DNA of 50,822 nucleotides, filler included, from Sphacelaria rigidula (Eukaryota): assembly GCA_964200075.2 (NCBI GenBank). It is 2 parts of 2 records of this genome, joined end to end, with 100 filler letters (N's around TTAATTAATTAA, not from the genome) between each part and the next. Parts side by side here need not be neighbours in the genome. Positions count along the whole stretch, not along the records: positions 1 to 25,381 come from CAXNAA020000169.1; 1 more part is not named here. One strand, 5' to 3'. Under the pieces are notes generated by a model, which was not told the DNA's origin, searched no databases, and worked only from the letters and a program-made list of their open reading frames with translations. Position numbers and translations under genes: made by a program. This document shows, piece after piece, positions 1 through 50,822 of the stretch (position 1 is its first letter; every line of letters begins with the position of its first letter).

Positions 1-69
1 AGAGCTTGATTCAAAGACCAAGTCTCTCTTCACCGTCGATCTGTTTTCGATCGTGAGATCTGTCCCGAT

Positions 70-520
70 ATTATTGTTAGTCGTGTAGATATGACACGAT
101 TGTTTTTTCCAGCTCGCCTTATAATTCCGTCTCTTTTCTCCGGATTTATGACACGGCGAGTCAAGTTAGCGCGTATTTTTTTATCTTGAACCGATTTGAT
201 TCGCGTTCATGTCTGAATATTATCTTAGTCGTGTAGGCCTGCCACGAGAAATTATTGCAGCTCGCCTTAATTATTTAATTTATTTATTTTTTCGCGAATT
301 TTGTGGGCGGCGAGTCACTTAGCGCGTACTATTCAACTTGGTTTGATTTTTTACGCGTTTCATTTATTTATTTTCAGACATTCTGTTGGTCGTGTAAGTA
401 TGACACGATTTTTTTTCTAGCTCGCCTTATACTCTTCTTTTTTTTTTCGAATTTTGAGATGGCGAGTCAAATTAGCGCGCATTATCCAACTTGTGTTTAT
501 TCGATACGCGTTAATGAGTT
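70..520. repeat. Three imperfect tandem copies of a 150-160 bp unit in the retrotransposon 3' region
   Basis: Recurring T(A/G)GTCGTGTA...CACGA...AGCTCGCCTTA...GGCGAGTCA...TTAGCGCG starting near 78, 226 and 387. Confidence 0.85.
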
Positions 521-545: not shown

Positions 546-2200
546 TCAGTACTCTAAGTCTGCTGACGGCCCGTAGCCTTCAAGACGGAGACGGTACTTG
601 TAATTTTGATGGCTCTTTCTTCCCGGACCTCGTTTGTGGCCCACCACCTTGTCAACGATGTAACGTTCAATTCTTGGTTTCTTTACTTCCGGACGGTCAA
701 GTTGGGGCAGGGGTAGTTTTTTGCCTAGGAAATACTCGTCGAGTTGGTCAAACTCGGGAGCTGAGGCTCGTTCTCGTGGATAATATTGCTTAAGGTGAGC
801 GAGGTGTACCGACGACCCTTTCGCATCTTCGCTTGACTTGACCTTATAGACAACCGGAGAAATTTGTTTGACGACCTTGTATGGCCCCCGCCATGGTAAT
901 ACCAACTTTGGATTAGGACCGTCTGTATCTTGGTGTGGCCTGAACAATAGCACTTGTTGGCCAGGTTTTAAAACAGGATATGGCTTGAGCTTATCATTGC
1001 TTGCCTTTTGTTTGTCTGCTCGTTTTTCCAAGTTGCGTCTGGCAATTTCAAAAGCAATCTGCAAGTTCTTTTGTCTCTTCCGCGTATTGTTCAGCATCCA
1101 CAGCGTGCCTTTTTTCGGAAATGCCCAAAATAATGTCGACATGTAATTTTGGTTGACGTCCGGACATGAGAAAATAGGGTGTTTCTTGCACTGAGGTATT
1201 GAATGATGTATTATACGCCATTTGCACGAAGGGTAGCATAGACGCCCAGTTGTCTTGTTCGACAGTGCTCTATGCATGGCTAACATTGCGCGCAAATTCG
1301 AGTGTACGCGTTCTAGAACAGAGTTGCCTTGAGGGTGGAATGGTGTCGTGCGTGTTTTGTCGAACTTAAGAATCAACTGCAACTGGTATATTACCCGGTT
1401 GTCCAACGCCTTCCCGCGATCAGAATGTAATTTTTTCGGGTATCGCAAATGTCGTGAAGACACGGTCTACCAACATTCTTGCCACAATATTAGCGGATTT
1501 GTTCGGTATGGGAATAAACAGTGCATATTGTGTCAGATGATCCATCACAGACAGTACATACTTACACGGCACGCCCGGGTGACGAATTCGAAACCGTCTT
1601 GTATTCGACAAGATCTATCGATGTCCGCTCAAAAGGTCTGTTCACGGGTACGTGGCCTACAGGCAATTTCGGACGGTTATGGGCCGTCTTTCTTCTCTGA
1701 CATGAGTGGCAACGTTGACACCACTTTCGCACATCTTGGCTCAATGTCGACCAATAATATTTGTTCTTAATATTTTCATACGTCGGTTTGAATCCAAGGT
1801 GACCTCCAGACAACAGATGATCGTGATAAGAGTGCCGAACGAAATTAACCAGAGCTTCTGGTAGCACTAGTCTATCGCGGTCGGTGCCTTTTTTTCGAAG
1901 GTTCCCTGGCAAGTATGACCTGAACAAAATACCGTCACGAAGCAAAAAGTAGGACATAAAAGTCAGTGCCCCCTGTTCCGGTAACGATGCGTTGTCGTCT
2001 GTCAGATATTGAATATAAGAGCCATATTCTTTTGCCCGTTCGGTTCGCAACTTGTCTTTGTTTGCAGATGTGAAAATATGTGTAGCGTTTGTGTGGGTAG
2101 CATTGACGGTAAATAGCTCTCTGTCGCTCTGTACTGGTTTGAGATTATCCAATTTATCCACTGAAATTTGAAACGGTTGGTGCGGTTTCTTCGCGTGCAA
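546..2200 (-). pseudogene. Gypsy integrase with C-terminal chromodomain (multiple frameshifts)
   Basis: HHCC zinc finger (HDHLLSGGHLG...CQRCHSCQ), DDE core (SIDLV, LHSDRG, VLERVH), GPY/F motif (KLVLPWRGPY) and chromodomain (YIVDKVVGHK...YRLRLEGYG), spread over ORFs 1562-2200, 1420-1611, 1048-1239 and 546-1463. Confidence 0.93.
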
Positions 2201-2311
2201 TTCGGGATCTTCTGGGACGTTCCGACAAATTGGCGCGAGCAGGGGTTTGACCTCATTATTCTGGTCTCCTTCAAACCGAAAGAGCCTTGACAGAGTGTCC
2301 GGAACGGTATT

Positions 2312-3872
2312 TCATTTTCCCGGTTTGTGCCTCACAGTGAAGTCAAAGGACTGTAAAGCTATCGCCCATCTTGTCAACATATTGCTCGTGTCTTGCATGG
2401 AGTAGAGGTACCGTAGTGCTGCATGGTCTGCCACACACGAGAAATGTTTTCCCCATAAAAAGGGCCTCCAGTGTTGTATAATTAATACCACTCCATAACA
2501 TTCTTTGAGTTTAGCGGAGTAGTGCCCTTGAGCATGATCGAAACGCTGACTGCAATACGCTACGATTGCAGTTTTTCCCCCCTTTATCTTGGGTGAGCAC
2601 CGAACCAGCACCCTCTCCAGGCGCGTCAACTTGAATGGTGAACTCCTTTGAAAAGTCTGGGAAGTAAAGGACAGGAGCGGTGGTGAGAAGCCTTTTTACT
2701 TCGGCAAAAGCTGCATCGTGTTCGTGATCCCAGCGTTTTGTTACTTCCTTGGCTGCCTCTTTTTTCGTTACATCTACCAACGGGGCGATTACCTGTGCGA
2801 GATTCGGAATGAATTTTCTCACAAAATTAACCGTCCCTAACACTGAACGTAATTGTTTGATGTTCGTTGGTGTAGGTAAATCCAAGATGGCCTTTACGCG
2901 GTCTTCCCCAATTTTGATCCTGTCGGCGGACAAAGTGTAGCCGAGGTACTTGACCTCCTTGGGACCAAACTGTGCTTTAGAGGGCTTCAGGGTAAGACCC
3001 GCTTTTTTCAGTGCTTCGAACATGTCTTCCAGTAGGGTGAGGTGACTTCCCCATGTGGAGGAGCAGACGATCAAATCATCCATGTACACCAACAGACCGC
3101 TCCTGGGTCCAAAGTGTGAGAAAGTAAGAGCCATTATTCGCGAGAAAATGAACGGGAAAGATGCTAGGCCGAACGGTAGCCTATTGAAAACCCACTTACC
3201 TTTCTCTGTAACAAGGGTCGTTTTTTCTTTCTCCTCCTCCGCTATTGGGATCTGATGGAACGCGCTCTGCACATCAAAGACAGAGATAAATTTGGTGCCT
3301 GCCACCGTATCTACATGACTTTCCAAATTAAGCATTGGCCATGATTTTCGCACAAGACATTTATTGAGCGTGGATCTGTATTCAACACAAAATCGGGCGG
3401 TACCATCATGTTTAGCTACGATCGTCACTGCCGAGCCCCATGGGCTGGGTCTTTGTTCGATTATTCCGTCTTTTTCCATCTCCTGTACGCAGTTGTCGAT
3501 GACTTCTTGAATTCTGGGGTTGGCTCTGTACGGGGCCCGATCGACGGGCTTGGTGCCCGGGACAAGGGGAAAAATTTCTTCCCCAATTGTACAACAACCT
3601 AATTTTCGTTGTGACAGTGAGAACACGGACCTGTAATTGATGCATAGGTCGAGTACTTGGCTCTTCTGATTTTCAGAAAACGTGCTATGTTTAAATGCAT
3701 TTTGGAGCGCTGTTGTAAGTTCTTCTCGGGCGTCAGTATTTTGCCGTTCAGCTTGTGAAGTTTCACCGGCGTTTCCCGTCGGGTCATTTTTTTCGACTTG
3801 TGTGATGTGTCCCAAAAGTAAAATTCTTGGGAGTTGGACGTGTTTATTCGACGGGTTTGCTACTTGAACCAT
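2312..3872 (-). pseudogene. Gypsy reverse transcriptase and RNase H (frameshifted)
   Basis: RT motifs PSPWGSAVTIVAK, FDVQSAFHQIP, RLPFGL, YMDD and YLGY. RNase H motifs TIQVDA, VAYCSQR, ECYGVV, DHAAL and RWAIALQSFDFTVRHKPGK are split over two frames. Confidence 0.95.
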
Positions 3873-4016
3873 AGCTGTTTTGTTGACCGCTGACCAGGTG
3901 AGGGATGTGCGTGCTACAACGAGGCGGCTAAAAGCATCCGGTACTTTGTTGGATTGGAGGTCTTCACTCGTTACAATTCTTGGCTCAATGACCGCTTCAG
4001 TCGTAAATTTTGGCGG

Positions 4017-5900: not shown

Positions 5901-6099
5901 CGCGAGTTGAGCTATTCATGTTGAACGACCGTGGACACATCGCTTGTTCGACGGCTGTATTACGAAAGCTGCTTAGGAGATGATGAGTCAAAATACGGAG
6001 GCTGTTCATATTACACACCGCACTCCGTTTTTTTTTTCGACTCTTGGGTGCTATCGGACTGTGTGTACTCCCTCTTGATTTCAAGAGTTTGTCGGTTAT

Positions 6100-6455
6100 G
6101 GGTTTATCCCCCCTATACACCTCTCCCTTGTTGCATGCGTTCTGTGATGTAGAGCATTGAACCGTCTGCAATTTGCAACTCCTCTCAACTTATGAGCTGT
6201 GAGATGCGGCAAGGCCGTCCATACACCCTCTTTCACTTGCTAAATGCAAGGGTATGATAAGGTAGTGAATTCGCAGATTGGGTAGTTCCACCTATACATC
6301 TCCATTTGCATGCGTTTTGAGATGTGAGCTTTCAAACTGTCTGCAATTTGCAACTCCTGTCAACTTGTGAGCTGTGAGATGCGGCAAATCCGTTTGTACA
6401 CCTTGCGCGTGCTAAGTGGTCGGGTATGTAAGGTAGAGCATTTGCAGGTTGGGTA
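6100..6455. repeat. Tandem duplication of about 176 bp
   Basis: TTGCATGCGTT...TCTGCAATTTGCAACTCCT.TCAACTT.TGAGCTGTGAGATGCGGCAA occurs at about 6131 and 6306. Confidence 0.85.
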
Positions 6456-6808
6456 CTACTTTCTTCAGTGCTATCTCAAATCACCGCGTTTGTAGAGGTC
6501 GGCCTGCTTGATTGATTGCAAATCCTCTAGTACTAACGCAGTGGTGAGAGGTGAGTTGATGGGTGTGGCTCCGCAACTTGACAAGCCCTGAATGAACACA
6601 TGACCACTCTGACCTCTCAACCGAAAGAATTGTGCACATGACCCATGCATTTCACCTGCTATTGCACTCCTTGCACAGCCCTGGCGTCCCTGGCGTCCAA
6701 GCAACATCTTGTTGTTTGTTCTTACGAGCGCCTCGACCGGTGTAGTAGGTGTCGCTGTTTCTGCGTTAGCTAAAAATATCTAGTGTGCCCCGCACACGTG
6801 TTTACTAA

Positions 6809-6822
6809 ACTGGTGTTCGCCA
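6809..6822 (-). promoter_or_regulatory. Primer-binding site complementary to the tRNA-Ser(GCU) 3' end
   Basis: Minus strand TGGCGAACACCAGT lies 1 nt after an LTR-end CA. It matches the complement of the tRNA end seen at 7005-7017 (TGGCGACACCAGT) with one extra A. Confidence 0.75.
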
Positions 6823-6823
6823 A

Positions 6824-6958
6824 TGTGCAAGTCGTGAGACTCCTGGTGACGGTGGAAACCGTCGAAGGTGGCCGATGATTTCCCGCGGGTTATGTAGTCA
6901 AGGACTGACCGTTAGTCGTGGGGTTGAGGCGAAGTGGATCACTCGGGAAAGCTCGACG
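6824..6958 (-). repeat. 135-bp duplicate of the LTR 3' end (putative R-U5)
   Basis: Colinear with 7019-7153, with about 9 mismatches counted by eye. Confidence 0.9.
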
Positions 6959-7017
6959 TTGGCTTGCTAAGTCAATGCGCCTCGCACGCGTGAGTTCGAA
7001 TCTCACTGGTGTCGCCA
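6959..7017 (+). pseudogene. 5'-truncated tRNA-Ser(GCU) copy (anticodon arm to CCA) embedded in the retrotransposon
   Basis: Anticodon stem-loop TTGGC-TTGCTAA-GTCAA (GCT at 6966-6968), long variable arm, T-arm GTGAG-TTCGAAT-CTCAC, acceptor 3' strand TGGTGTC, discriminator G and CCA. The D-arm and 5' acceptor strand are absent. Confidence 0.88.
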
Positions 7018-7018
7018 A

Positions 7019-7319
7019 TGTGGAAGTCGTGAGACTCCCGGTGACAGTGGAAACCGTCGAAGGTGGCCGATGATTTCCCTCGGGTTATGTAGTCAAGGAT
7101 TGACCGTAAGTGGTGGGGTTGAGGCAAAGTGGATCACTCTGGAAAGCTCGACGAGCGCGAGCGAGTTAGCCCGAAAACGAAGTCTGAGAGTCTTGGTCAA
7201 GAGTGATGCCCCAGGGATAGCCAGCAGTTCGCTGGGAAAATCCCTGTTACCTTGGGGTCCCAGATTCGGCTGTACAGATATGGCAGTTTCGGGGCTCCTG
7301 CGAACTTACCCCTGTAACA
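7019..7319 (-). repeat. Putative 5' LTR (301 bp)
   Basis: Minus strand starts TGTTACAG and ends TTCCACA, then 1 nt and TGG (PBS). The outer boundary at 7319 is inferred from the TGT...ACA termini only. Confidence 0.65.
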
Positions 7320-8461
7320 GCCGTTCACTAGGTTACACGTCATGAAAGGAAATCTCTCCGCACATGACCAAATGGCGATCTCCTCAAATCACATTTTTTC
7401 CTGGGAGATGCTGGTGATCAGTACAAGACGTATCTCATGGTGGAGTGCCGTTGTTGAAAAGGCAGTCTGAACGCCCGACCGCCTGCAGTCAGATCACGTG
7501 AAGCAATCTATCAGGACGGTAATCTGTTGAGGCTACCCAGATTCGGGCACAGAGCATACTGATCATTTTTCTTTCTCGTTGGTTCACACCTTGAGATTAC
7601 CTGGACGCTTAGGTCCCCTCAATTTGGTGCATGGTCAGCGCGGTAGCATCAGGTGGCTGTGGTGCGAGTTACAGCCTTGGTTGCATTGCCAGCCTTCGGC
7701 TTCACTTAGGTGAACAACTACAGTGAAGATATAAAAGGCAGCCCGCATCAGCCACATGTCGTCAATATTAGGGCAATCCAAATGAACTTCATCTCGCTGG
7801 AGAAGGCATGGTTGTCGAATTAAATAGCAAAACGTGAGACGTGTCGGGTTGACAGCCATGACTGCCAGCACCATAATTTCTTTCCCACGGGTCCTATCTT
7901 TTCAGGGTATAAGACATTGTAGACCGAAACGAGGACAAAGCTTTTGGTCCTCATGTGTAAACAAAAGAGAGCCCGTTCCAGCCACCCGACCTTCGCTATA
8001 GCGGTGTCGTGCTTTTGTCGTGCTATCGAACAACAACTCATACGGTACACATCGAACGCTATGACGTTGCAGTCATTTCAAAATGTATTCAACTGCCGGT
8101 ATCTACCGGTGTAACGGCTAACACATATCACCATCACATTACCAAAAATTCCCACAGGATAACCTCCGGTAATTGTCGGCGATCCACATTTACCCAAATC
8201 GCCTGACCTTAGGTTACCCGAAATATTCCTGTTCAGATGAACCCCACAAGATTATGCCTGAAACAATACTGTACGGGTACATGCTCATGTGTTGAGGGTG
8301 GTTCTCACCTAAGGAAACATTATTCTCCGTAGTCACACAACCCACAGGTATTGAGCAGACCTCATTTTTGTTCCAAACACGCGCTCAAAATTGGCGGTGA
8401 GCTGCCCCCTAGATATCACACAAGTCAGTTTTCTCTCAATACTGCCGCCGCTCCCCGGTGG

Positions 8462-8881
8462 TGTAATGGTCCGACTGTCGTCATGAGGGTGGAGAGAACG
8501 GGGGTTTGATCACCGATGCGTGGGGTTTTTCTTCATAATGTATGATTTCCACCGTGGAAAGCGTGAGAACGTGAGTGAACAAAGTAGTCGACTGGGTTTG
8601 TGTCACGTGAGTTGACGACGCGGGGCGGGAGTGCTGACCCAATCCGCGAGACCAAAAATGAAAGGCGCGTACCGGGGGAGAGATGGCTTGATCCCTTGAG
8701 ACCACGGATTCACCCTGCGGAAGGGGAGAGGTTAAAAGTGTGTGAGAAATACATGTCAATATCTGTACCGGGGATAGCACATAACACATAGGAAATGAGA
8801 ATATTGAAATGGCCGTGTTCACATGGAGCCCACAGCACACAAACCTCTCCACAACAAGCCGTTGACAGGACGGACTACACA
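8462..8881. mobile_element. Putative solo LTR (420 bp)
   Basis: Begins TGTAATGGTCCG and ends CGGACTACACA (imperfect inverted termini). Flanked by the 5-bp direct repeat GGTGG at 8457-8461 and 8882-8886. Confidence 0.65.
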
Positions 8882-9728: not shown

Positions 9729-12700
9729 CTGGAGTGACCTCCGTCTCCTTCAACCGAAGCTTGGTTAAAATAATATCCAAATCCTCACCGCTACCCACCT
9801 GGGCAACAATCACGCACAGCGATAGGCATGGGGAAGTATACAAGTGTCCATCAGCACTCGTGCACGCACGCCTTCTAAATTTTAGGTATCGGAGGGTGCT
9901 TCATCCGGTAGGGTAACCGGAATGCAAGTTCTCGGAATTCGAGTCAGACACGAAGGAAATTTGAAAAAATTGCACCAACTATCAAGGGTCTCGAGAGGGG
10001 GTGTACTCATGATCTCGCATGCGATAGTCTAATGACGATTCACCTCGGATCCCTACAAAGCCGGGACGGAGCACGCCGGGTTTTCGCCTCGGTCCTGAGA
10101 GGGGGGAGTGTACTCATGATCTTGCTGGTTCTGAGGGGGGGGGGCAACATAAGTGGGTGTTGAATGGGGCGCGTGGGTGTGTGATCGCAGCCTCCTCTAC
10201 TGCGTACAACATCCATTGCGAGGTCCACAAAGAGATTGAAAGATCTTCATCGAGTGCAGTCAAAGCAGCTCAGGTAAACGATACCCCCCTGGCGTCTAGG
10301 GTCGCCGTCAGATCTTTGTTTCTACCGAGCTGTAAAAGCACAGCAGGCCATTTGCTCTGGGAAATCAGAAGAGCACTTGGACGTCAGTCGCACGGTGGCG
10401 ATCCACTGAGAAGACACCCTCTAAGAAGGAGCACAACTAGTCATTTCGATACTTCTGATACCTCAGTACTCAGCCTGTATGGCTTTTCGAGGCTCACCTC
10501 CTCAGGGTAGTAGTTGTCCATCGCTAGGCCGTTGTTGGCGGCGTTCGTGATTGCACTTGCAATCGATGCTAGATCCATTTCAATGCCGATCGCCTGACAG
10601 CCAACACGCACACAGCACACACGGCGGTCGATATATTGCTACGCAGGGTTAGCACACAAGGAAGCGTACATCCTGAGCAAATCACAACAATTCGCGGTTG
10701 GGGAATCGCGTGGTTCAAAAATAGACACGCCTACAGGATCAGGAAAAGCTTCACGGAAGATGTCTTGCATAACATACGAAGATGTCCAACTCTCAGTTTC
10801 GGGGGTGAGTAGGTATGTGAATGTAGGAAGGGAGGGGATGGGGCGGGGCTTCTGTTGACTCGAACAGTTCTGATTGCTCATCGGGATCCTTCTGCTTACG
10901 CAACTTGTGTTGTCCTCGCCGGTTTGACAATCGCATTCCACCTTTACGTCCCTTCACTATCCCACTCCTGACAAGAAAATTATCAATGGGAAGTGGGTCT
11001 ACAATGCTGTACACGATACTACCCATTCGAGTCAAGGAGTTACCAGTGCAATAGATCCTACCTCTGTGGCGCCAAACTTGAGCGCTGCTAGCCCCAGTAT
11101 ACCGCTGCCGCTGCCATAGTCGAGTACTCTTTGGCCTGAAGACGTTCTTTCCAGCCAGTTGCAGCACCTGCCGACGTTGAAGATTGTCTAGTCACTGGCC
11201 TGTGTACATATCAGGCTGGACCCCAAGGACTTCACGATGCAACTTGTGCAGAACTGCAAGAAACAAATATCGATGTCGGAGTCGGGGTTTTCTTGTGCAG
11301 GCAGCACTGACAGCAGCCGCACACAAAGCCGCCGGTTGCACTTAACTCAAAGCCAACCTGCGCGTGTACCTTGCAGGAGCACACCAATCTCCTCCTTTTT
11401 TTACGTGCCGCGCAAGGGCTCACTACACAAGGTTGTTGAGCTACCGTGTATTGACGCGAGGAGAAACAAGGTATAACATACACCCACCCCTATAAACACC
11501 CATCGTGCACGATAACGTACAATAAGGTGGTGGCATGCTCCCCCGTTCCGAATGCCGTCCCGCCCTCCAGCACGAGCTCCACCTCAACACGTGGAGAAAC
11601 ACGCGTATCGGGAAGGGAATAGCGGTTGCGATATTAAGAATGCGGCGTAGATCCCACGTGGGGTGTGATTCACATGAAGCATGAGCTAGTCACACCAGCC
11701 ATACACACCCTCAAGATGTTTTCATGTGTCTTGATCCGACGGCAGTCGAGTGAGAAAAACGACGGTCAGGACCCCCTACGGTGTCGAGTGTGAGGAGAAT
11801 GTTTCGGTTGACGACGGTATCGACGTAAATGTATTCGCGCCGAGGTTTTGTCGGCGACAACTTGGCCCACTGGTGCAGTTATTTTTATCGTTCCTCGCTG
11901 TCAACAGCTTCCAAAACTGGTGAGGTTGTTTATAGCGTTGTTCGCCGTAAACAAACACTTTGACCTACTGCAGCCTGTCCAGATGTGACACAAAATCAGC
12001 ACTACCCTTGCAACACAGCCTGTCCGACGAGACTATTCCACGAGGTACGCTGTTACATCGCATGAGGATCAACTGATGCCAAGTGAACACTCGAATCGAG
12101 CGTTTGCGTACCCTCACAGCGCCGAAAACCACGGTGTCACCTTCTCCGGCCCAAGCTGGGAGGCCGGCAAGGGATCATGCCACGGAAATCGAATGCGTAG
12201 TTTCCCCGCCTGAATGGGCTCCCATCCTTCCTAGAACGCGGATCAGAAACCGTCGGGAGAGAAATCAAACATCAGGACCACGGCGGTGCACAGCAACGAC
12301 ATAGCATCAGCACGTATGCATGCAGTAACTAGCAGCGAGTGATTACCGGCGCGCCTACCTGTGCGTTAGAGCGGGGGGCGACGGGTGAGGCGAAGGCGTT
12401 GCCCTCGCTGTGCAATGCACATACCGACCATCCGCATGGTTTGTGGATTGCATGCCGACACCACCGTTCAAGTTGGTGTCTGATCCAAATTCACAGAGGC
12501 GAGGCGCAATCGCCGACTGCCGTGTGCTATTGAATACGCTACCAAAACATTACATTCGAGGCACCGGGAGCTAGAGCACGAACGAGCTGGACGACACACC
12601 ATCCTCCCCCTCTCTTGCTCGACAAAACACTCTTTAGAGTTGGTAAAGACTACAGATGAATTGTGACGCAGCGCTGTTTTATGTGAAGAGGTATCGCCAT

Positions 12701-24737: not shown

Positions 24738-25330
24738 CCAGCCTGGTGCGACGGAAACCTGGCGTGCTCCGTCCCGGCTTTGTAGCGACGGACCTCCTAT
24801 GGAGTTGGCGTCGGTTGGCAATGACGATGTAAAACACGCCGCTCATTGCGTACGCTAGACTACCAGGTTACCAATTATCTTTTGCCCACTTGCGTTTTTT
24901 TTGCGGTTACCATGATGATGGTGGTGGGCGAACTAGATCCTATTTTTCAGGGTGGGAGAACCGCGATTCCGCGCAGAGGGGATGATCGTACTACGTAGTG
25001 TTGAATTGGTGAGACACCCATGAGGCAGTGTATAAGCCGCGGCTACCTCTGGAAGTGACGACACCAAAAAAGGAAGCATTTCATTGGAGGCGGTCATCCA
25101 AATGCAAGACAATAAGTACGCTTCGGATGGAACAATCTCAGCAGGATGCAGCTCACCCTTCATGCTATTCGCCGAACACATCACGGCGCTTTACGCTTGG
25201 TCATTGATACCGCATCTGGTCCGGCGAAAACCCGGTGTGGTCCGCCCCGGCTTTGTAAGGATGCGAGATCAATGGTCATATATATGACTACGGCATGTTA
25301 AATCATGAGTATTCCCCCCCCCCCCCCCCT
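24738..25330 (+). repeat. Composite repeat: family A fragment, 165-bp internal segment, full family A copy
   Basis: Family A at 24738-24790 and 25214-25330. Segment 25011-25177 is homologous to 30071-30236. Confidence 0.75.
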
Positions 25331-29100: not shown

Positions 29101-32100
29101 TGAAAGTGGCGGTCACAAGAGTCCTGGTTCCTGACTAGTTCCATGTTACACCAAGTAGCTCGTCGGGGCGATGCAAACTCAAGGTAAAGCCATCCCGTCA
29201 GCTGGGAATGAAGCGAGGCTTGAAATATGATTACCAAGCGGGGAGGCGTACTCCACCTCGACTAGCAGTGCACACGTCGACCCACTACGTAGAGTCTGAG
29301 ACACAATGCTGGGACGACGACGTATCGCTGACCTCTATTTCCGCGCTCCGGCCCCAGCGAGTGAGGATGTTCCCCGCGTCGTCGACAGCTTCTTCGAACT
29401 CGGACGGCTCGAGCGGATCCTTGGTTACATGAAACAACGTCGTGCCTCCTGGGGCCTGGAACCACCTGCGCACGCGAAGCACCACACAAAGGTACATCGA
29501 TCGCATGACATTTCGGGTGATAGATCACTCTCCGTTACCACCCGTGTGATGATGAGTCAACATCAACATTTTGAGGCAAGAACCAATGAAGTTGCACCAT
29601 ACACACTGTCGCGTAAAACATGAAGCGCCAAAAAGCCCCGACACTTGTATCTCTTACTAACGTTTTACACGGCATGGAAGTAGGCTTTTGACCCTATACT
29701 GTTGGACGGGAAGGGTGTTCGATTCGTTCATGTCGCCTGGGTAACCCCCTGAAAGCTCGTTAAGCCAAGGTCCTGTGTTGATAAATGTCGTGTCACGCAT
29801 GGAGACAAGTGCAGATCCATTCTCTATGAACACGGAGCATGCGGCTGATAATTGTGCAACCGCGAATACTGAGCATCTCCTATTATGCGTTTACTATAGG
29901 TACCCGTGTTTGTCTTCACACCCTCGCGTCGGGACGAGTCTACAAGGTCGAACGACGAACGAATCTCTCCCCCGAGCCTGGTCCGGCGAAAACCCGGCGT
30001 CCTCCTTCCCGGCTTTGAAGGAATGCGAAGTCAATGGTCTATGATCATGGCATGCAAGAATATGACGGTTAGACACCCATGAGGCAGTGTAAAAGCGGTG
30101 ACTGTCTCTGGAATCGGCGATACCACAGGATAAAGCAGCTCATTGTTGGCTGTCATCCAAATGCAAGACAATCAGAAGGCTTCGGGCCGAACAATCTTAG
30201 CAGGAGGCAGCTCACCCTTCATGCGACTCGCCGAACNNNNNNNNNCGTGCAAGCCTGGTCCGGCGAAAACCCGGCGTGCTCCGTCCCGGCATTGTAGGGA
30301 TGCGAGGTCAATAGTCTTATGACTAAAGCATGCATGATCATGAGTACACCCTTCACCCCCCAAAGAAAAGCTCCGTCTCGAAAGGGATGCGTGGTCAATG
30401 GTCCAACGACTAAGGCAAGCAACAAATGAGTACGCCCCCCCAAAGAAAAGCCTGGTCATGTGACGACGAGTATTAGATCACCACTGGCATTGAGCATCGA
30501 TTTCTGTCCAACATTTGTTTCGTGACTCACGCCCGTACACGTTTGACAACGATCGCCTGGCTCTGAATAGCAAGAGCCTATCTGCTGGTATTTCAGGCCA
30601 GGGCATTTTGACCACCTGATGAAAAATACTGACGGGCAACCATATTTCCCACCTGGTTTGGGCGGAGGCTGTTGTAATGTCTTCTTCGTAGGTGCAGTCG
30701 AGGTAGACGCCTCTGGTTTCTTCATCTACCACTAACTCGCCACTGTCGTCGTAGCGTTCCTCGGTGGTAAGATAGACCAAGCACTCGTCCGAGAAAGGAG
30801 ATTTTCCGACGTTCCGCCACTGGTTGATCGCCTGTGTTTGCTCGTAGGGTATCTGTTCAAACAACACAGAAAAGCATGGCCACGATGCAACTTGCAGCTC
30901 AATCGTGTGCAACTAACTGCAGAGGAGCTGGGGACACTTGCGGCGGGAGTATTCGAACATGGCAAAGCACGTGACCTTGAAATAATAAACTACAGACTGC
31001 ATATTCAAAACATATTTGCACGCTGAAGGTCTGCACTACACAATGCAATGGAGCAGGGAAAGTGGAACCACAAGAGCGTCGCATTCATTCAGGAGGATAG
31101 CGCACTAAAGTTCCAAGAATGGCGTAAGGAAGGCACGCTTGTGGGGCTACTGGACAGCTTGATCGCCCCTTGCACATTTGAATTCGGACCACAAAACACT
31201 CACGATTGTGCAGGCTGGATGTGACTCCACCAGTTTCGCGAAGCTCATATGATTCCCGTAGCCAGCGCAGGAGCTCAAAAAGGGAAAGTACGGTGTTGTA
31301 AGGAACGTGTTGGCCCCGGAATCGTCCCCGGAAGCCCACCAATTAGAATCCTCGTAGCCAGCGGTGTACGATGTACGCACGACCTCTCTCTCCGGAAGAG
31401 ACTCATAGTCTGTGATGCTGATATTCTCTCCGTTGTAGAATGCCTTGAAATCCGTGGATAAGAACGGCCATAATATAGCGCAGCGAATGTGGATCAAGAC
31501 ATCGCGCAAGCGTGGCACCCTCCGAGCGTATTGCTGGTTCTTTACACGAGTAGAATCTTCGATTGGGGACGCCAAATACATGTGATCGGAGGTGCATGGC
31601 CTGAGTTAGAGACATTCTCTACGCCGTGAAGCGCGCGCTGGATGTAAAGAGAACGCAGAGGAATGAAGAACAAAATGAGTAGGAATTTCTACACTCCTCA
31701 CCATGATCTACATACGGGTATTACATCAGAGTATCCTCTTCCGGAGTCACCGCATCAACTTGTTGATCGAATGCACCATCTCTGGGATATACCGCAGGAC
31801 ACTCCGGACCCCCTGGGCCCCTATTCAGCATCTATCCCACCCGATGGAGTCATATTAGGTGGTTGATCTCTACTTTGCAACCGGTCGCACCGAATGTATA
31901 TCGTTACCGGCATCTACTGCAGAACCGACCCCATATGGCAGAGATACTTCATGTTTTTTGTCTGTTGTACCATCCAGCTGGTCTGCTTCGCACGCGGAAA
32001 GTGTTGTCATACTCTCTGAGATTGTCAGATGATACCACAGTGTGACCAATCCAGCAAATCGTAAGCTCCGACTTGACATAGGAGAAAAATTACTTGACAA

Positions 32101-47100: not shown

Positions 47101-50100
47101 GACAGGAATGGGCGAAGGAATATAAATGAACCCTAGTACTTGATACATACGTCAAAGATCTGCTAATATACACAAGTAAAAAAGTACAAGAAGTGACTTG
47201 TAATATCGATATGTGTGTTTTGCACAGAGGTGGTAGCTGTCGGTGAGCACCAGCCGCAACTATACAACAGTTTATCCCTTGGGGAGCTCTCTCCCTTTGT
47301 ACCTGACGATAGGCTTGACCCAGTCCAGTGCCGTCGGTGCACACATATCCCACAGGACACAGGCGCGTGAATTGACCCTTTTCACGAAAACCCACGATAT
47401 CAGCGGAACGCACGAGATAAAAACAAAACAGTTCATCAGCCGGATTCAACTATTATAACGAAAACCGGTCCTATCGACGGAGCTAGCTGGATATCGCTGC
47501 TGTCGCCCACACTTCTCTGCAATAAACCTTGGAATATGGGGCGAGGGCTCATTCTAGGTGATCCCGAACATGATTCACAAGATCAATGCCTGCCACTACC
47601 TATGATCTGTCAAGCCTTGTCGGGCGATCACAACGGCGATAATATCTCCAGTATCACCACCTTTATTGCACTGCTAGTCGAGCGGTCAGCACGATATCAA
47701 CCAACGGGCGAATAGAGCCTCTGGGAATAAAAAAAAACATTGTACTCGAGGTACGTTGTGAAGACCTGAATGTGTGCGTTTCACCACGGATTCGAAAACG
47801 GCTGTCAGATAATATTAATCGATGACAACGATTCTACTAGTGCACGTCGAGATAGTGCTAGTGATGACGCACAGGAGCTTCGCGGTGCGGATGCGTTGCA
47901 TATCATCTCGTAGCAATAATGGGCATGAACTGGTTGCGCAGAGGGTAAGTACCGTGAAGCACCAACGTCTACTATCGTAGGTATTGGCCAACACAGGACC
48001 AGCGAAACATAACCCTTCGACGGTGAAATACCCCGAAGGTGAACCACGAACGCTCACTGCCATATCTGTATAACATCACCTCAGGAGCCTCGAGATCTGG
48101 ATCAGGCGTGGTGCCAAAATCGCACACATATCCCTGCGGGATAACGGGTAAGCCGGCGACATTCGTTCAGGGGTTGGGAGAGACACCAAGTCGAGCGAAC
48201 AATGCTTGATGGGCGACCACCGGTTTTGCGTCAGACGTCAACTGGACCACGATATACTTTATTTTTGAAGCACGAACTGTATCCTGCAACGACCATACCT
48301 GGGCAGGTGATACATATATATATATATATATATATATTGGAAATGCATCGGATTCACCCTAACGAGCGCTGTGGAACTTTTTGTATTGATAGCGAAGATG
48401 TCCTTCGGCTCACGCGCTCTTTGTTCACAATGGCCACACATCACCGCATACCCTTAAACAACAGTGCGCTTTGCAGATTTCGCAGTGAATTCGGCTTGTT
48501 GTACAGTCTCGCCGCTTCACCAGTCCAACAGAGTTATGACAAACAAATACCAAAGAATAAAATATACATCAATATCCTCACGACGCATCGAACCATTTCT
48601 ACTGGTGGTAAGAGGAAACACAGTACGCACGGACAGGCAGTGGCGAACGCACTCATAAAGTGCCTTAGACTTGCAGCAAGAAGCGCAATGGAGCGCCGGT
48701 CACACATCACCGCTGTCTGCATGCTCTTGAGCTTTCAACGCGCGGACATACATGAAACGTATGCCGCATATTTGTGGTAGTCTTGGCCCTTTGGCCGGTT
48801 TCACCTCTCGGCAGGGGAAGTACACGCTCTCCTCGGATTTCGAGGCTTCCTCGCAGATGTAGCCCTCTGGGCAGGCCTCCGCTTCGGTACTCCCGGTGTC
48901 ATCACACACGATATCGGCCTTGCAATACATGCATCGTTCCAGATCAAGCGCAATGCGAAACGAAGCGTGAGGATGGATCACTTCAAGGCACATGCGACGA
49001 CACCACGCGCTCGAACTTTCCCACCCAAATCTACTAAAATTGCGAGCAGAGGTAGTGTAGATGGTGATCAACATTCACCAAAACCGTCTGCATTTGAACG
49101 TAGTTAAGAGGATGAAGTTTTATTTGCTGAACAAATACCTTTATCCCCGTGAACGTCAGCAAGACCCCTGCGAGGTGGTTGCTGTACCCTTGATCCCCAT
49201 GCAGATGGACCTTCCTGACCTCGTCGAAAAACAGCCAATATACTCGACTGGATTACACGCGCGAGCGAGCTGATGGCTTTGTATCTATCAGGGATATCGT
49301 AACGATATTTGCTTCACCCCGCACCTCACACGTTCCAGGGTACCAGGTATCGCTGAGGAGTGCGATCTGTCTCTGGCCTTCTTGGTCATGATCTGGGTCA
49401 GTGTAGACCATGATCTCTTCATCGGCTGTCGCGTAGACGCTGTCATTGCTCATCAGCTGGTCGGGTAGAGTAGCACAGACAACGACAGCGTTTCGAGTGC
49501 AACACCGATGAGATTTACGACCGACGTTCGCGTGTGGTTTTTACAATCAAGCCAGGGGAAGTTGACAGTGGGTTGTGAGAGCTTCACACAACATTACCGC
49601 CCAGGACGATGCATAAATGCCCCAACTCTGGGTACCTTACTCTTCGTTCACGAGAGCGGTTACAGCACAGATTTCTCTAGCAGATGATTTCACAACGGAA
49701 ACTGATATTCTCCCGAGGTCTATCTTGACCTGGTCGAGTAATTGCGCACACCACACGAGCGAAAGTCTTTGATTTGAAGTGGTTATTCATTGAACTTCAG
49801 GCGCTTGCAGTTTCCAAAGGTCAGCCTTGAGTCTGCCGTCGTTTGAAGGCAGGCATCAAGCTGCTTCAGCACTACTTGCCTGGTATCCCGGGGTGCAGTT
49901 AAAGCTAGCGTCGTACACCCTGGAGCGCGGAAGGTCGATGAAAAGACTGCCCTTCCCCCAAAAGCCATCGTACTCTTCCTCATTCCCATACTCTTGGTGA
50001 TGAACGCCAGTCTGGATGTCATATTGAGGCCCATAGTAGTCACGCATGCGCTGGTAAACCTGCGCAGGGAGGCAGGGGGGGTGTACTCATGATCATGCTT

Positions 50101-50822
50101 GCCATAGTCATCAGACCATTGACCTCGCATCCCTACAAAGCCGGGACGGAGCACGCCGGGGTGCATCGAGGGACGGAGGGGTGCATCGAGGAAGTCGATC
50201 GCTAGAGTCAAACCTCATTGACAACGTATCTCTCTGGGGCCGGGGCTTATTTACCATTCAGAATGCTCAAGGATAAACATCAGATATACTGTACGCAAAA
50301 GTCCCCGTATGCTTAATGAAATCCGCGAATCGTAGTGTGTTCATCTCGGCTTCGGACAATGATGGCAAATCGTCTTCGTTGATCGGTTCTTCTGTCCCGA
50401 CAAGACACGATCTCAGGGCTTGCATGCCATTACGTTGTTGTCGGTGAGATTTGCTGCAAAAATCGCCCAACCACCTTTGTGGCGAGATGTGAAACGGTTT
50501 CGGGGCACCTCGAAGCCAGAATATTTTGCTGTATGGTGACCTGATTGCTTTGGAGTACTGCATCATGTGACTTCTTTTGTCGACACCAGTGCTACGGATC
50601 TCGTGGAAAATGGCAAGTCCGCACGTACGTGAAACCAGCGCGTCAGCACATCTCGCACGTGTTTTTTGTTTGTTTCTTCATGAGCCTTTAAACGCCCCTC
50701 CGTTCCTCGGGTGCTTAACACGTTGTCTCGAGGGTCTAAATCCCCCCTTTCCCCACCGACTCCCCCACCCCCCGGCCCCCCCCCCCCCCCACTCACCGCC
50801 CGAGCCTCCGCCAGCCACTCCA
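26151..50822 (-). CDS. Large uncharacterised Cys-rich protein with GCC2/GCC3 (ephrin-receptor-like) repeats and a predicted transmembrane region; partial at both ends
   Basis: Phase-consistent exons 5'->3': 50279-50391 (ends uncertain), 49880-50059, 49325-49456, 48805-48918, 48080-48133, 47303-47377, 45720-45866, 44937-45317, 44435-44650, 43474-43596, 42880-42994, 42219-42355, 40777-40932, 39967-40118, 39485-39616, 37070-37215, 36002-36089, 34059-34296, 33060-33140, 32326-32406, 31204-31443, 30653-30852, 29333-29465, 28758-28844, 27389-27529, 26151-26302. Repeats CPEGYICEE, CREGYVCDFGT, CPVGYVCTDGT and CSENYFCPTGT. The last exon ends in hydrophobic WMLYMVFFTIVG. Structure above 50391 is unresolved. 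Confidence 0.85.
29047..29120. repeat. 18-bp minisatellite, about 4 copies
   Basis: GAGAGTGGTGGCCACAAT units. Confidence 0.85.
29975..30441 (+). repeat. Composite repeat: family A copies around the 165-bp internal segment
   Basis: Family A at 29975-30057, 30252-30360 and partially at 30383-30441. Internal segment 30071-30236. A 9-N gap lies at 30237-30245. Confidence 0.8.
37790..38700. repeat. Degenerate low-complexity array of CATCCATCTG/GGGATATC motifs with a T-rich core
   Basis: Dense recurrence of CCATCT(G), GGGATA(T) and ATATCCA within an intron. Confidence 0.6.
40119..40350. repeat. 114-bp tandem duplication that includes a 3' splice site
   Basis: CTGTCGAACGAGCAT...ACCCACGGACA.CAT units start at 40119 and 40233. 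Confidence 0.9.
41869..41985. repeat. 31-bp minisatellite, about 4 copies
   Basis: GCTAGGGAACCACCCGTGCTAATCACCCGCTC-like units. Confidence 0.85.
43927..44186. mobile_element. MITE-like element (260 bp), copy 2
   Basis: Termini GACAATTTCCACGAT / CTATCGTAGAAAGTGTC. Inverted homolog of 19478-19726. Confidence 0.7.
46060..46445. repeat. Degenerate minisatellite of about 40-45 bp units
   Basis: Recurring CCAGGGTATC(T)...ACTG..G.CAGTAC.GA.TA motifs within an intron. Confidence 0.6.
48313..48337. repeat. (TA)n microsatellite
   Basis: Run of TA. Similar runs occur near 9275-9299 and 20528-20542. Confidence 0.9.
50074..50161 (-). repeat. Family A short repeat next to a splice acceptor
   Basis: GGGGGGGTGTACTCATGATCATGC...CCCTACAAAGCCGGGACGGAGCACGCCGGG. 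Confidence 0.9.

Follow-up and report, generated by a model that had tools for sequence, protein, structure and literature searches.

How does a complementary copy of most of a mature tRNA, CCA end included, come to stand between two copies of the same LTR end in a genome? The question is raised by a retrotransposon in a 50,822-nt stretch of the Sphacelaria rigidula assembly GCA_964200075.2 (i.e., the window, to which all positions given here refer). Read in the direction of the element, on the minus strand, an LTR end is followed by a 59-nt copy of the primer tRNA, by a second LTR end, and by a primer-binding site (PBS). An earlier note, made from the sequence, had described the locus in this way, and we recovered each of these parts at the positions that it had given (Table 1).

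Structure of the element and its duplicated LTR end

The retrotransposon is a Ty3/gypsy-type LTR element on the minus strand and an old, inactive copy. Its pol remnants gave minus-strand Pfam matches to RVT_1 (E = 1.3e-24, frame 2511-4016), RT_RNaseH (E = 9.5e-21, frame 2312-2695), Integrase_H2C2 (E = 1.5e-18, frame 1562-2311), and Integrase_p58_C (E = 3.8e-08, frame 546-1466). Because these domains are scattered across several reading frames, this copy is broken. In the protein collection, the nearest named relatives of the reverse transcriptase (RT) frame were brown-alga proteins of about 70% identity (best, 67 to 72%); a search of viral contigs with the same RT found no relative.

The window contains the 5′ LTR only, the 3′ LTR lying beyond base 1. 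A step in contig depth at 7391/7392 places the outer LTR end near 7391 to 7393, where TGTG reads, and thus gives an LTR of about 373 bp. Inspection of the LTR by eye found nothing usable among promoter or poly(A) motifs for placing R within it, and no TATA-like motif about 30 nt upstream of 7153. Two further tandem duplications lie within the element. One of the ~179-nt units at 6109-6455 is absent from other family copies, in which a contig joint leads from 6198 to 6430, and the repeats at 68-512 are three in number, each with a common 45-nt core, and lie in an A/T-rich stretch.

Table 1. Features of the retrotransposon, in the direction of the element (positions in the window)
Feature	Position	Strand	Basis
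5′ LTR, ~373-375 bp, termini TGTG...CACA	7019..7393 (outer end ~7383-7393)	-	Depth step and sequence reading
Upstream 135-bp LTR end (U5 side)	7019..7153	-	Direct repeat
Single T between LTR end and tRNA complement (pairs with the first base that was added to the primer)	7018	-	Sequence reading
59-nt complement of mature tRNA-Ser(GCU), CCA to position 27	6959..7017	-	Rfam tRNA alignment, gene identity, fold
Second 135-bp LTR end, differing from the upstream copy by 9 mismatches	6824..6958	-	Direct repeat, alignment
Single T spacer before the ordinary PBS, same as the T at 7018	6823	-	Sequence reading
Ordinary PBS, 14 nt (13 match the tRNA 3′ end, plus one inserted A)	6809..6822	-	Alignment
Apparent decayed anti-tRNA-like leader, co-linear with tRNA positions ~27-62, 27 of 42 aligned positions identical	6766..6808	-	Alignment
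Tandem duplication, ~179-nt unit, 80% identity, 5′ internal region of the element	6109..6455	-	Repeat search
pol remnants (RT, RNase H, integrase zinc domain, integrase C-terminal domain, in this order)	546..4016	-	Pfam
~150-nt tandem repeats, 3′ of the integrase frame	68..512	-	Repeat search

The repeat search returned the LTR end as 142 nt at 94% identity, with a spacing of 195 and 1.7 units; when the two copies were aligned, 126 of 135 columns were identical. Each copy ends in ...CACA, and one base past this end, at 7017-7005 and again at 6822-6809, the sequence matches the 3′ end of tRNA-Ser. The tRNA piece is antisense in the sense strand of the element and belongs to the same tRNA species as the PBS (13 of 13 PBS bases). 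Both junctions then continue with CG.

Identity of the 59-nt piece

The piece at 7017-6959 opens with TGG, complements the 3′ part of a class II tRNA, and stops exactly at position 27. Its first 28 nt correspond to CCA (3 nt), the discriminator base (1), the acceptor strand (7), and the T stem, T loop, and T stem (5, 7, and 5); the remainder comprises the variable region (14), an anticodon stem strand (5), the anticodon loop (7, with anticodon GCT), and the other stem strand (5). The Rfam tRNA model covered the anticodon arm, variable arm, T arm, and 3′ acceptor strand with 20.1 bits (E = 0.16, 601 bases). This does not reach the gathering score of 29, since LTR sequence stands in place of the 5′ third of the tRNA. 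The anticodon arm, the long variable arm, and the T arm are intact. In the predicted fold of the 59 nt, the anticodon and T arms were present, and the energy was not unusual (z = -1.0). Across the whole window, ARAGORN and Rfam at gathering scores found no whole tRNA gene, and Rfam at E values up to 10 found no further tRNA-like match.

A scan of metagenome contigs with a 23-nt pattern (T arm plus acceptor strand) returned 11 loci, of which 4 carried tRNA-Ser(GCT) genes, 6 carried tRNA-Ser(AGA) in dense tRNA arrays, and 1 was an unrecognized tRNA-like stretch; the LTR was in none of the 11. The piece was identical over 27 to 28 nt, including the 27 nt of 6988-7014, to five tRNA-Ser(GCT) genes in the four loci of the first group, which come from other organisms and not from the host. 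One of these foreign genes matched the piece at 43 of 56 positions over tRNA positions 27-73. CCA was encoded in none of the five, each being followed by T-rich sequence. At position 58, the copy has a plain A, as do the foreign genes, and there is no misincorporation footprint; at position 32, it has T where all five foreign genes have C, which makes a misincorporation possible at this place.

An apparent decayed anti-tRNA leader next to the PBS

The site after the second LTR end had previously been described as a short ordinary PBS. The PBS is indeed present at 6822-6809, but it is adjoined by what appears to be a decayed anti-tRNA (6808-6766), which that description had overlooked. This leader ends at the same point of the tRNA as the intact copy. 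Its co-linear score was reached by 17 of 5,000 dinucleotide shuffles and by 5 of 4,006 real 50-mers of the window, and its unconstrained local score was reached by 36 of 5,000 shuffles and by 36 of 3,130 real window segments. The likeness to an anti-tRNA is on these counts beyond chance, though moderate (P of about 0.001 to 0.01). The best-matching core of the leader is the variable arm, and since this is the part in which the window tRNA differs from the foreign genes, the likeness is to this tRNA and not to tRNAs generally. When a foreign tRNA was used as a proxy for the 5′ part, no signal of likeness extending into that part was found (1,345 of 3,000 shuffles scored equally).

The 195-nt unit has diverged unequally. 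Its LTR-end part is 93% identical between the copies, whereas its tRNA part is 64% identical, with indels; the upstream tRNA copy is therefore younger than the leader. Since other copies of the family have the leader as well, a primer copy had probably been acquired in this lineage on one earlier occasion. The decayed leader thus has a bearing on the idea of a family that stably carries an anti-tRNA, and it is a different bearing from the one proposed in the earlier note. As a separate observation, in the leader and PBS region (6762-6822, plus strand) the stretch homologous to the variable arm is a perfect 6-bp hairpin with a 3-nt loop, in a register that differs from that of the tRNA variable stem.

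Family copies and contig depth

Contigs of four public runs (X1 to X4, of which X2 and X3 represent one sample) were aligned to positions 6000-8600, and one of the runs with this stretch carries the label 'algae metagenome'; the summed contig depths reported here are not copy numbers. The flank was reproduced without difference over 7354-8471 in X2 and X3 contigs and over 7700-8475 in X4 contigs, and X1 contigs differed from it at 40 of 1,111 places. From 7392 outward, in the unique flank, the summed depth was 29.6, 76.9, 35.2, and 8.77 in X1, X2, X3, and X4, respectively. Inward from 7391, it was approximately 80,000 to 104,000 (X1), 162,000 to 250,000 (X2), 53,000 to 97,000 (X3), and 657 to 747 (X4), and many contigs diverged at 7383. 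In the internal region (6000-6782), the depth exceeded the unique value by a factor of some tens. The LTR is very abundant, and the internal part is much rarer.

Family contigs covered 6593-6838 at about 95% identity and at a depth of up to 687 in X1, against 29.6 in the unique flank of that run. Because these contigs derive from other copies, the leader together with the PBS is the normal arrangement of the family. Among the contigs listed, none bridged 6958/6959 or the whole tRNA insert. In the bin 6957-7043, the depths in the four runs were 26,607, 53,880, 20,168, and 210; the 25 LTR bases of this bin alone, taken at the depth of the next bin, would yield 29,204, 71,885, 26,433, and 215. 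As the observed depth was at or below the LTR-only expectation in all four runs, the insert does not occur at LTR-like abundance; it may be present in one copy or in tens of copies. A search with a 17-base pattern of LTR end plus PBS matched at least 120 places in prokaryote genomes and 6 places in viral contigs; these were chance matches, and the LTR accompanied none of them.

An X4 contig at a depth of 76 (unique depth, 8.77) has a backward joint from 7136 to 7034, by which about 103 nt of the LTR end are repeated; three extra letters stand between the units, and this is a different tandem duplication of the LTR end, in other copies. An X2 contig at a depth of 95.6 (single-copy depth, 76.9) has a joint from 7014 to 8443. 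In it, the tRNA piece is matched up to the discriminator base, four other letters replace CCA, and the abundant repeat that starts at 8443 follows. This contig may represent the genuine tRNA-Ser gene of the host, with the repeat inserted just downstream.

Proposed origin by copying of the primer

The anatomy of the locus gives good support to the conclusion that plus-strand strong-stop DNA copied the primer tRNA-Ser(GCU). Because the tRNA copy is antisense in the sense strand of the element, it represents plus-strand DNA made on a tRNA template. Because it starts at A76, one base past U5, it begins at the junction of primer and minus-strand DNA, and a template of this kind is available to plus-strand strong-stop DNA only. 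We consider primer read-through to be the best explanation of the arrangement as a whole, and a likely one, though well short of certain. The earlier note had proposed that RT copied far into its own primer tRNA, then switched template, and that the aberrant cDNA was integrated. The anatomical tests support the long copy and its integration, and the template switch enters the account as a reconstructed step.

In the mechanism that we propose, plus-strand strong-stop DNA would be primed at the polypurine tract and would copy U3-R-U5 from minus-strand DNA. Synthesis would then run into the attached tRNA-Ser(GCU) primer and continue past the usual limit of about 18 nt at position 58, for 59 nt in total, from A76 to position 27. 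It would stop before position 26, which is assumed to be m2,2G and would block the Watson-Crick face; alternatively, it may have proceeded two bases further, with the CG common to both junctions acting as microhomology. The freed 3′ end would move to minus-strand DNA, at a point 135 nt short of the LTR end; the new template would probably be the cDNA of a co-packaged second genome with its own primer. There, the LTR end and the normal length of primer would be recopied, and an ordinary second strand transfer via the PBS, followed by integration, would complete the process. The leader of the family may, on the statistics of its likeness, be the product of an earlier read-through that was integrated and then became the founder of copies.

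By count, the end of the copy falls exactly at the 26/27 boundary, with G and m2,2G at position 26 in the host being assumed. In eukaryotic tRNAs, position 26 is normally m2,2G. According to one source, m2,2G26 is almost always present in full, whereas modification to m1A and m3C is often sub-stoichiometric (PMC8062790). Read-through at 58 and a halt at 27, seen in the light of this difference, suggest a primer that was poor in m1A58 and on which RT stopped at m2,2G26. Several points weigh on the other side. Reaching position 27 requires passage of position 58 and also of position 32 if this carries m3C, and the switch point is without clear microhomology unless copying extended two bases further. 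Two additional tandem duplications, of 150 to 180 nt, lie within the element, and the family has the joint 7136/7034, so that the duplication may not need a mechanism linked to the primer. The junctions rest on the assembly. That read-through to the 26/27 boundary took place at least twice in the lineage, with a first product that was replication-competent, is a tentative proposal, to which we give somewhat less than an even chance.

Alternative explanations

The read-through might have occurred in an earlier cycle; the progenitor so produced would have had one LTR end and, as its leader, a fresh 59-nt anti-tRNA. The double form would have arisen later, by copy-choice between two co-packaged RNAs (one with a fresh leader and one with a decayed leader) or by minus-strand synthesis to the RNA 5′ end and an end-to-end jump onto extended strong-stop DNA, in which case the 135 nt would be R plus U5. 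On this account, the nine differences between the LTR ends are differences between templates. It also draws on the base at 6854, which is private to the downstream copy, nearly all family contigs having the base of the upstream copy, and on the other LTR-end duplication in the family (the backward joint from 7136 to 7034). It needs, however, an extra, unobserved progenitor; a fresh anti-tRNA joined straight to the internal region was in none of the contigs listed; and the LTR has no TATA-like motif about 30 nt upstream of 7153. We regard this course of events as rather unlikely and, because it still needs primer read-through, as a variant of the main reading and not an alternative to it. A tandem duplication at the DNA level, by slippage or unequal exchange, would have doubled a 195-bp unit that carried a long anti-tRNA leader, one copy of which then decayed. 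The exact spacing of 195 with 1.7 units would fit such an event, as would the two other tandem duplications in the element (6109-6455 and 68-512). It predicts equal divergence along the unit, but 126 of 135 positions are identical in the LTR end against 27 of 42, with indels, in the tRNA part. Moreover, the leader had decayed before this copy arose, as other members of the family already have it in that state, and the contigs suggest that sister copies with a single unit have the decayed leader only. Slippage also leaves unexplained why the unit has its boundary precisely between tRNA positions 26 and 27, and we consider a duplication of this kind improbable.

The abundance of the LTR, whose summed depth exceeds that of the unique flank by a factor of 75 to about 3,500 in the various runs, raises the question of a chimeric join within a highly repeated sequence, since repeats of this kind are error-prone and no junction-spanning contig was among those listed. 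Such a join would have needed homology that the locus scarcely offers: the sequence common to the PBS and a tRNA gene is 13 nt long with an indel in it, too short for an assembler overlap, and at the other junction (from position 27 to the LTR at -135) homology is absent altogether. The junction of CCA, A, and LTR is also impossible to obtain from a tRNA gene without encoded CCA, and the flank is confirmed by contigs. An assembly artifact is therefore very improbable in our estimation. Least credible of all is an unrelated tRNA-derived SINE or tRNA pseudogene that inserted into an LTR end that had been duplicated. There is, 1 kb away (8444-8600), a tRNA-like repeat of very high abundance, but the piece lacks the 5′ third of the tRNA with box A, has neither a tail nor a target duplication, and possesses CCA. 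It is, in addition, antisense, placed one base past the LTR end, and derived from the same tRNA as the element's PBS.

Comparison with known retroelements

One study gives the normal length of primer copied into plus-strand strong-stop DNA as about 18 nt, with a stop at m1A58 (PMC8599865). The locus resembles retroviral and Ty plus-strand strong-stop DNA in having a primer-tRNA template joined to minus-strand DNA, in the start at A76, in the strand, and in the adjacency to U5. It differs from the normal product in that 59 nt were copied, compared with about 18, and in that position 58 was read as a plain A. When HIV-1 was produced in TRMT6-deficient cells, the stops at positions 58 and 54 were lost and plus-strand synthesis continued into the tRNA; synthesis past position 54 left a tail that was unable to pair after strand transfer, and the cDNA was not integrable, according to that study (PMC8599865). 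In contrast, the extended product at the present locus is genomic, apparently rescued by the second LTR end and the normal PBS.

Copies of tRNA made by RT have also been found joined to retroviral DNA, according to accounts given in a later paper. A cloned circular DNA of Moloney MLV, unintegrated, held a reverse-transcribed spurious tRNA between the LTRs (Colicelli and Goff 1986, per PMC12220202), and hairpin-induced tRNA-mediated recombination in HIV-1 replaced an engineered hairpin with tRNA inserts of 63 to 65 nt (Konstantinova et al. 2006, per PMC12220202). As summarized there, these cases share with our locus tRNA-derived DNA made by RT, tens of nucleotides in length, and joined to retroviral sequence; here, unlike in those cases, the tRNA is the element's own primer, the element's own PBS follows, and the copy is chromosomal. 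In mouse MusD/ETn, complementarity to tRNA-Lys3 extends to 22 nt, the base at the m1A58 position being mismatched (bioRxiv 10.1101/2025.05.12.650695). Both systems have genomic complementarity to the primer beyond the 18-nt PBS, but MusD/ETn has 4 extra nt, whereas the present locus has 41, no mismatch at position 58, and a duplicated LTR end.

The non-autonomous elements Helenus and TRIMp3 contain a tRNA-like unit in the sense orientation, with the pol III boxes A and B, inside the LTR, which is attributed to insertion of a SINE (PMC10886601). Like them, the present element is an LTR retrotransposon with tRNA-derived sequence within it. It is not of the Helenus/TRIMp3 type, since the piece is antisense, is without the third that holds box A, includes CCA, and is located at the PBS and not within the LTR. 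In a search of mostly non-subscription literature, we found no description of an integrated arrangement of LTR, anti-tRNA, LTR end, and PBS.

Implications for primer use

That RT can copy the primer beyond position 58 is established by biochemical work and by retroviral DNA that was either unintegrated or engineered. A chromosomal copy with 59 nt of the element's own primer, a recopied LTR end, and a PBS would be a natural record of the rescue of such an intermediate. Its end point may serve as a readable footprint of primer modification in vivo, through at position 58 and halted at position 26. If the decayed leader is what it seems to be, the event is heritable and recurrent and bears on the choice of primer and on the evolution of extended contacts between primer and template. 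The whole leader next to the PBS, in some tens of internal copies by contig depth, would then descend from a DNA copy of the primer tRNA, and primer overrun would not always be a dead end, being a heritable route by which extended primer complementarity is gained, refreshed, or changed. Joints of tRNA and strong-stop DNA could likewise enter chromosomes. One proposed model traces tRNA-derived SINEs to strong-stop DNA from which the primer had not been removed. A perfect target of 59 nt also far exceeds the 18 to 22 nt discussed for mammalian elements, which bears on exposure to silencing by 3′ tRNA fragments.

Other repeats and tRNA arrays

The repeat at 8444-8600 (plus strand, probably longer) has a tRNA-like head with D-arm-like and T-arm-like motifs and a run of T at its end (8525-8529). 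Its summed depth was 0.5 to 1.4 million, against 30 to 77 in unique sequence, and many contigs diverged at 8443/8444. ARAGORN and Rfam did not recognize it; it looks like a hyper-abundant tRNA-derived SINE or an amplified pseudogene. Elsewhere in the window, direct repeats at 25008-25177 and 30067-30236 (5059 bp apart, 82% identity) are possibly the LTRs of another element, and a second repeat family occurs three times, in mixed orientation, at 9999-10088, 30262-30351, and 50079-50160.

In the metagenome scan, the contigs at loci L003, L005, and L010 (about 7 kb each) and at L001, L004, and L011 consisted almost wholly of tRNA genes. Three of the tRNA-array contigs, which are unrelated to the retrotransposon, carried 46 to 47 genes in about 7.1 kb, in near-identical order.
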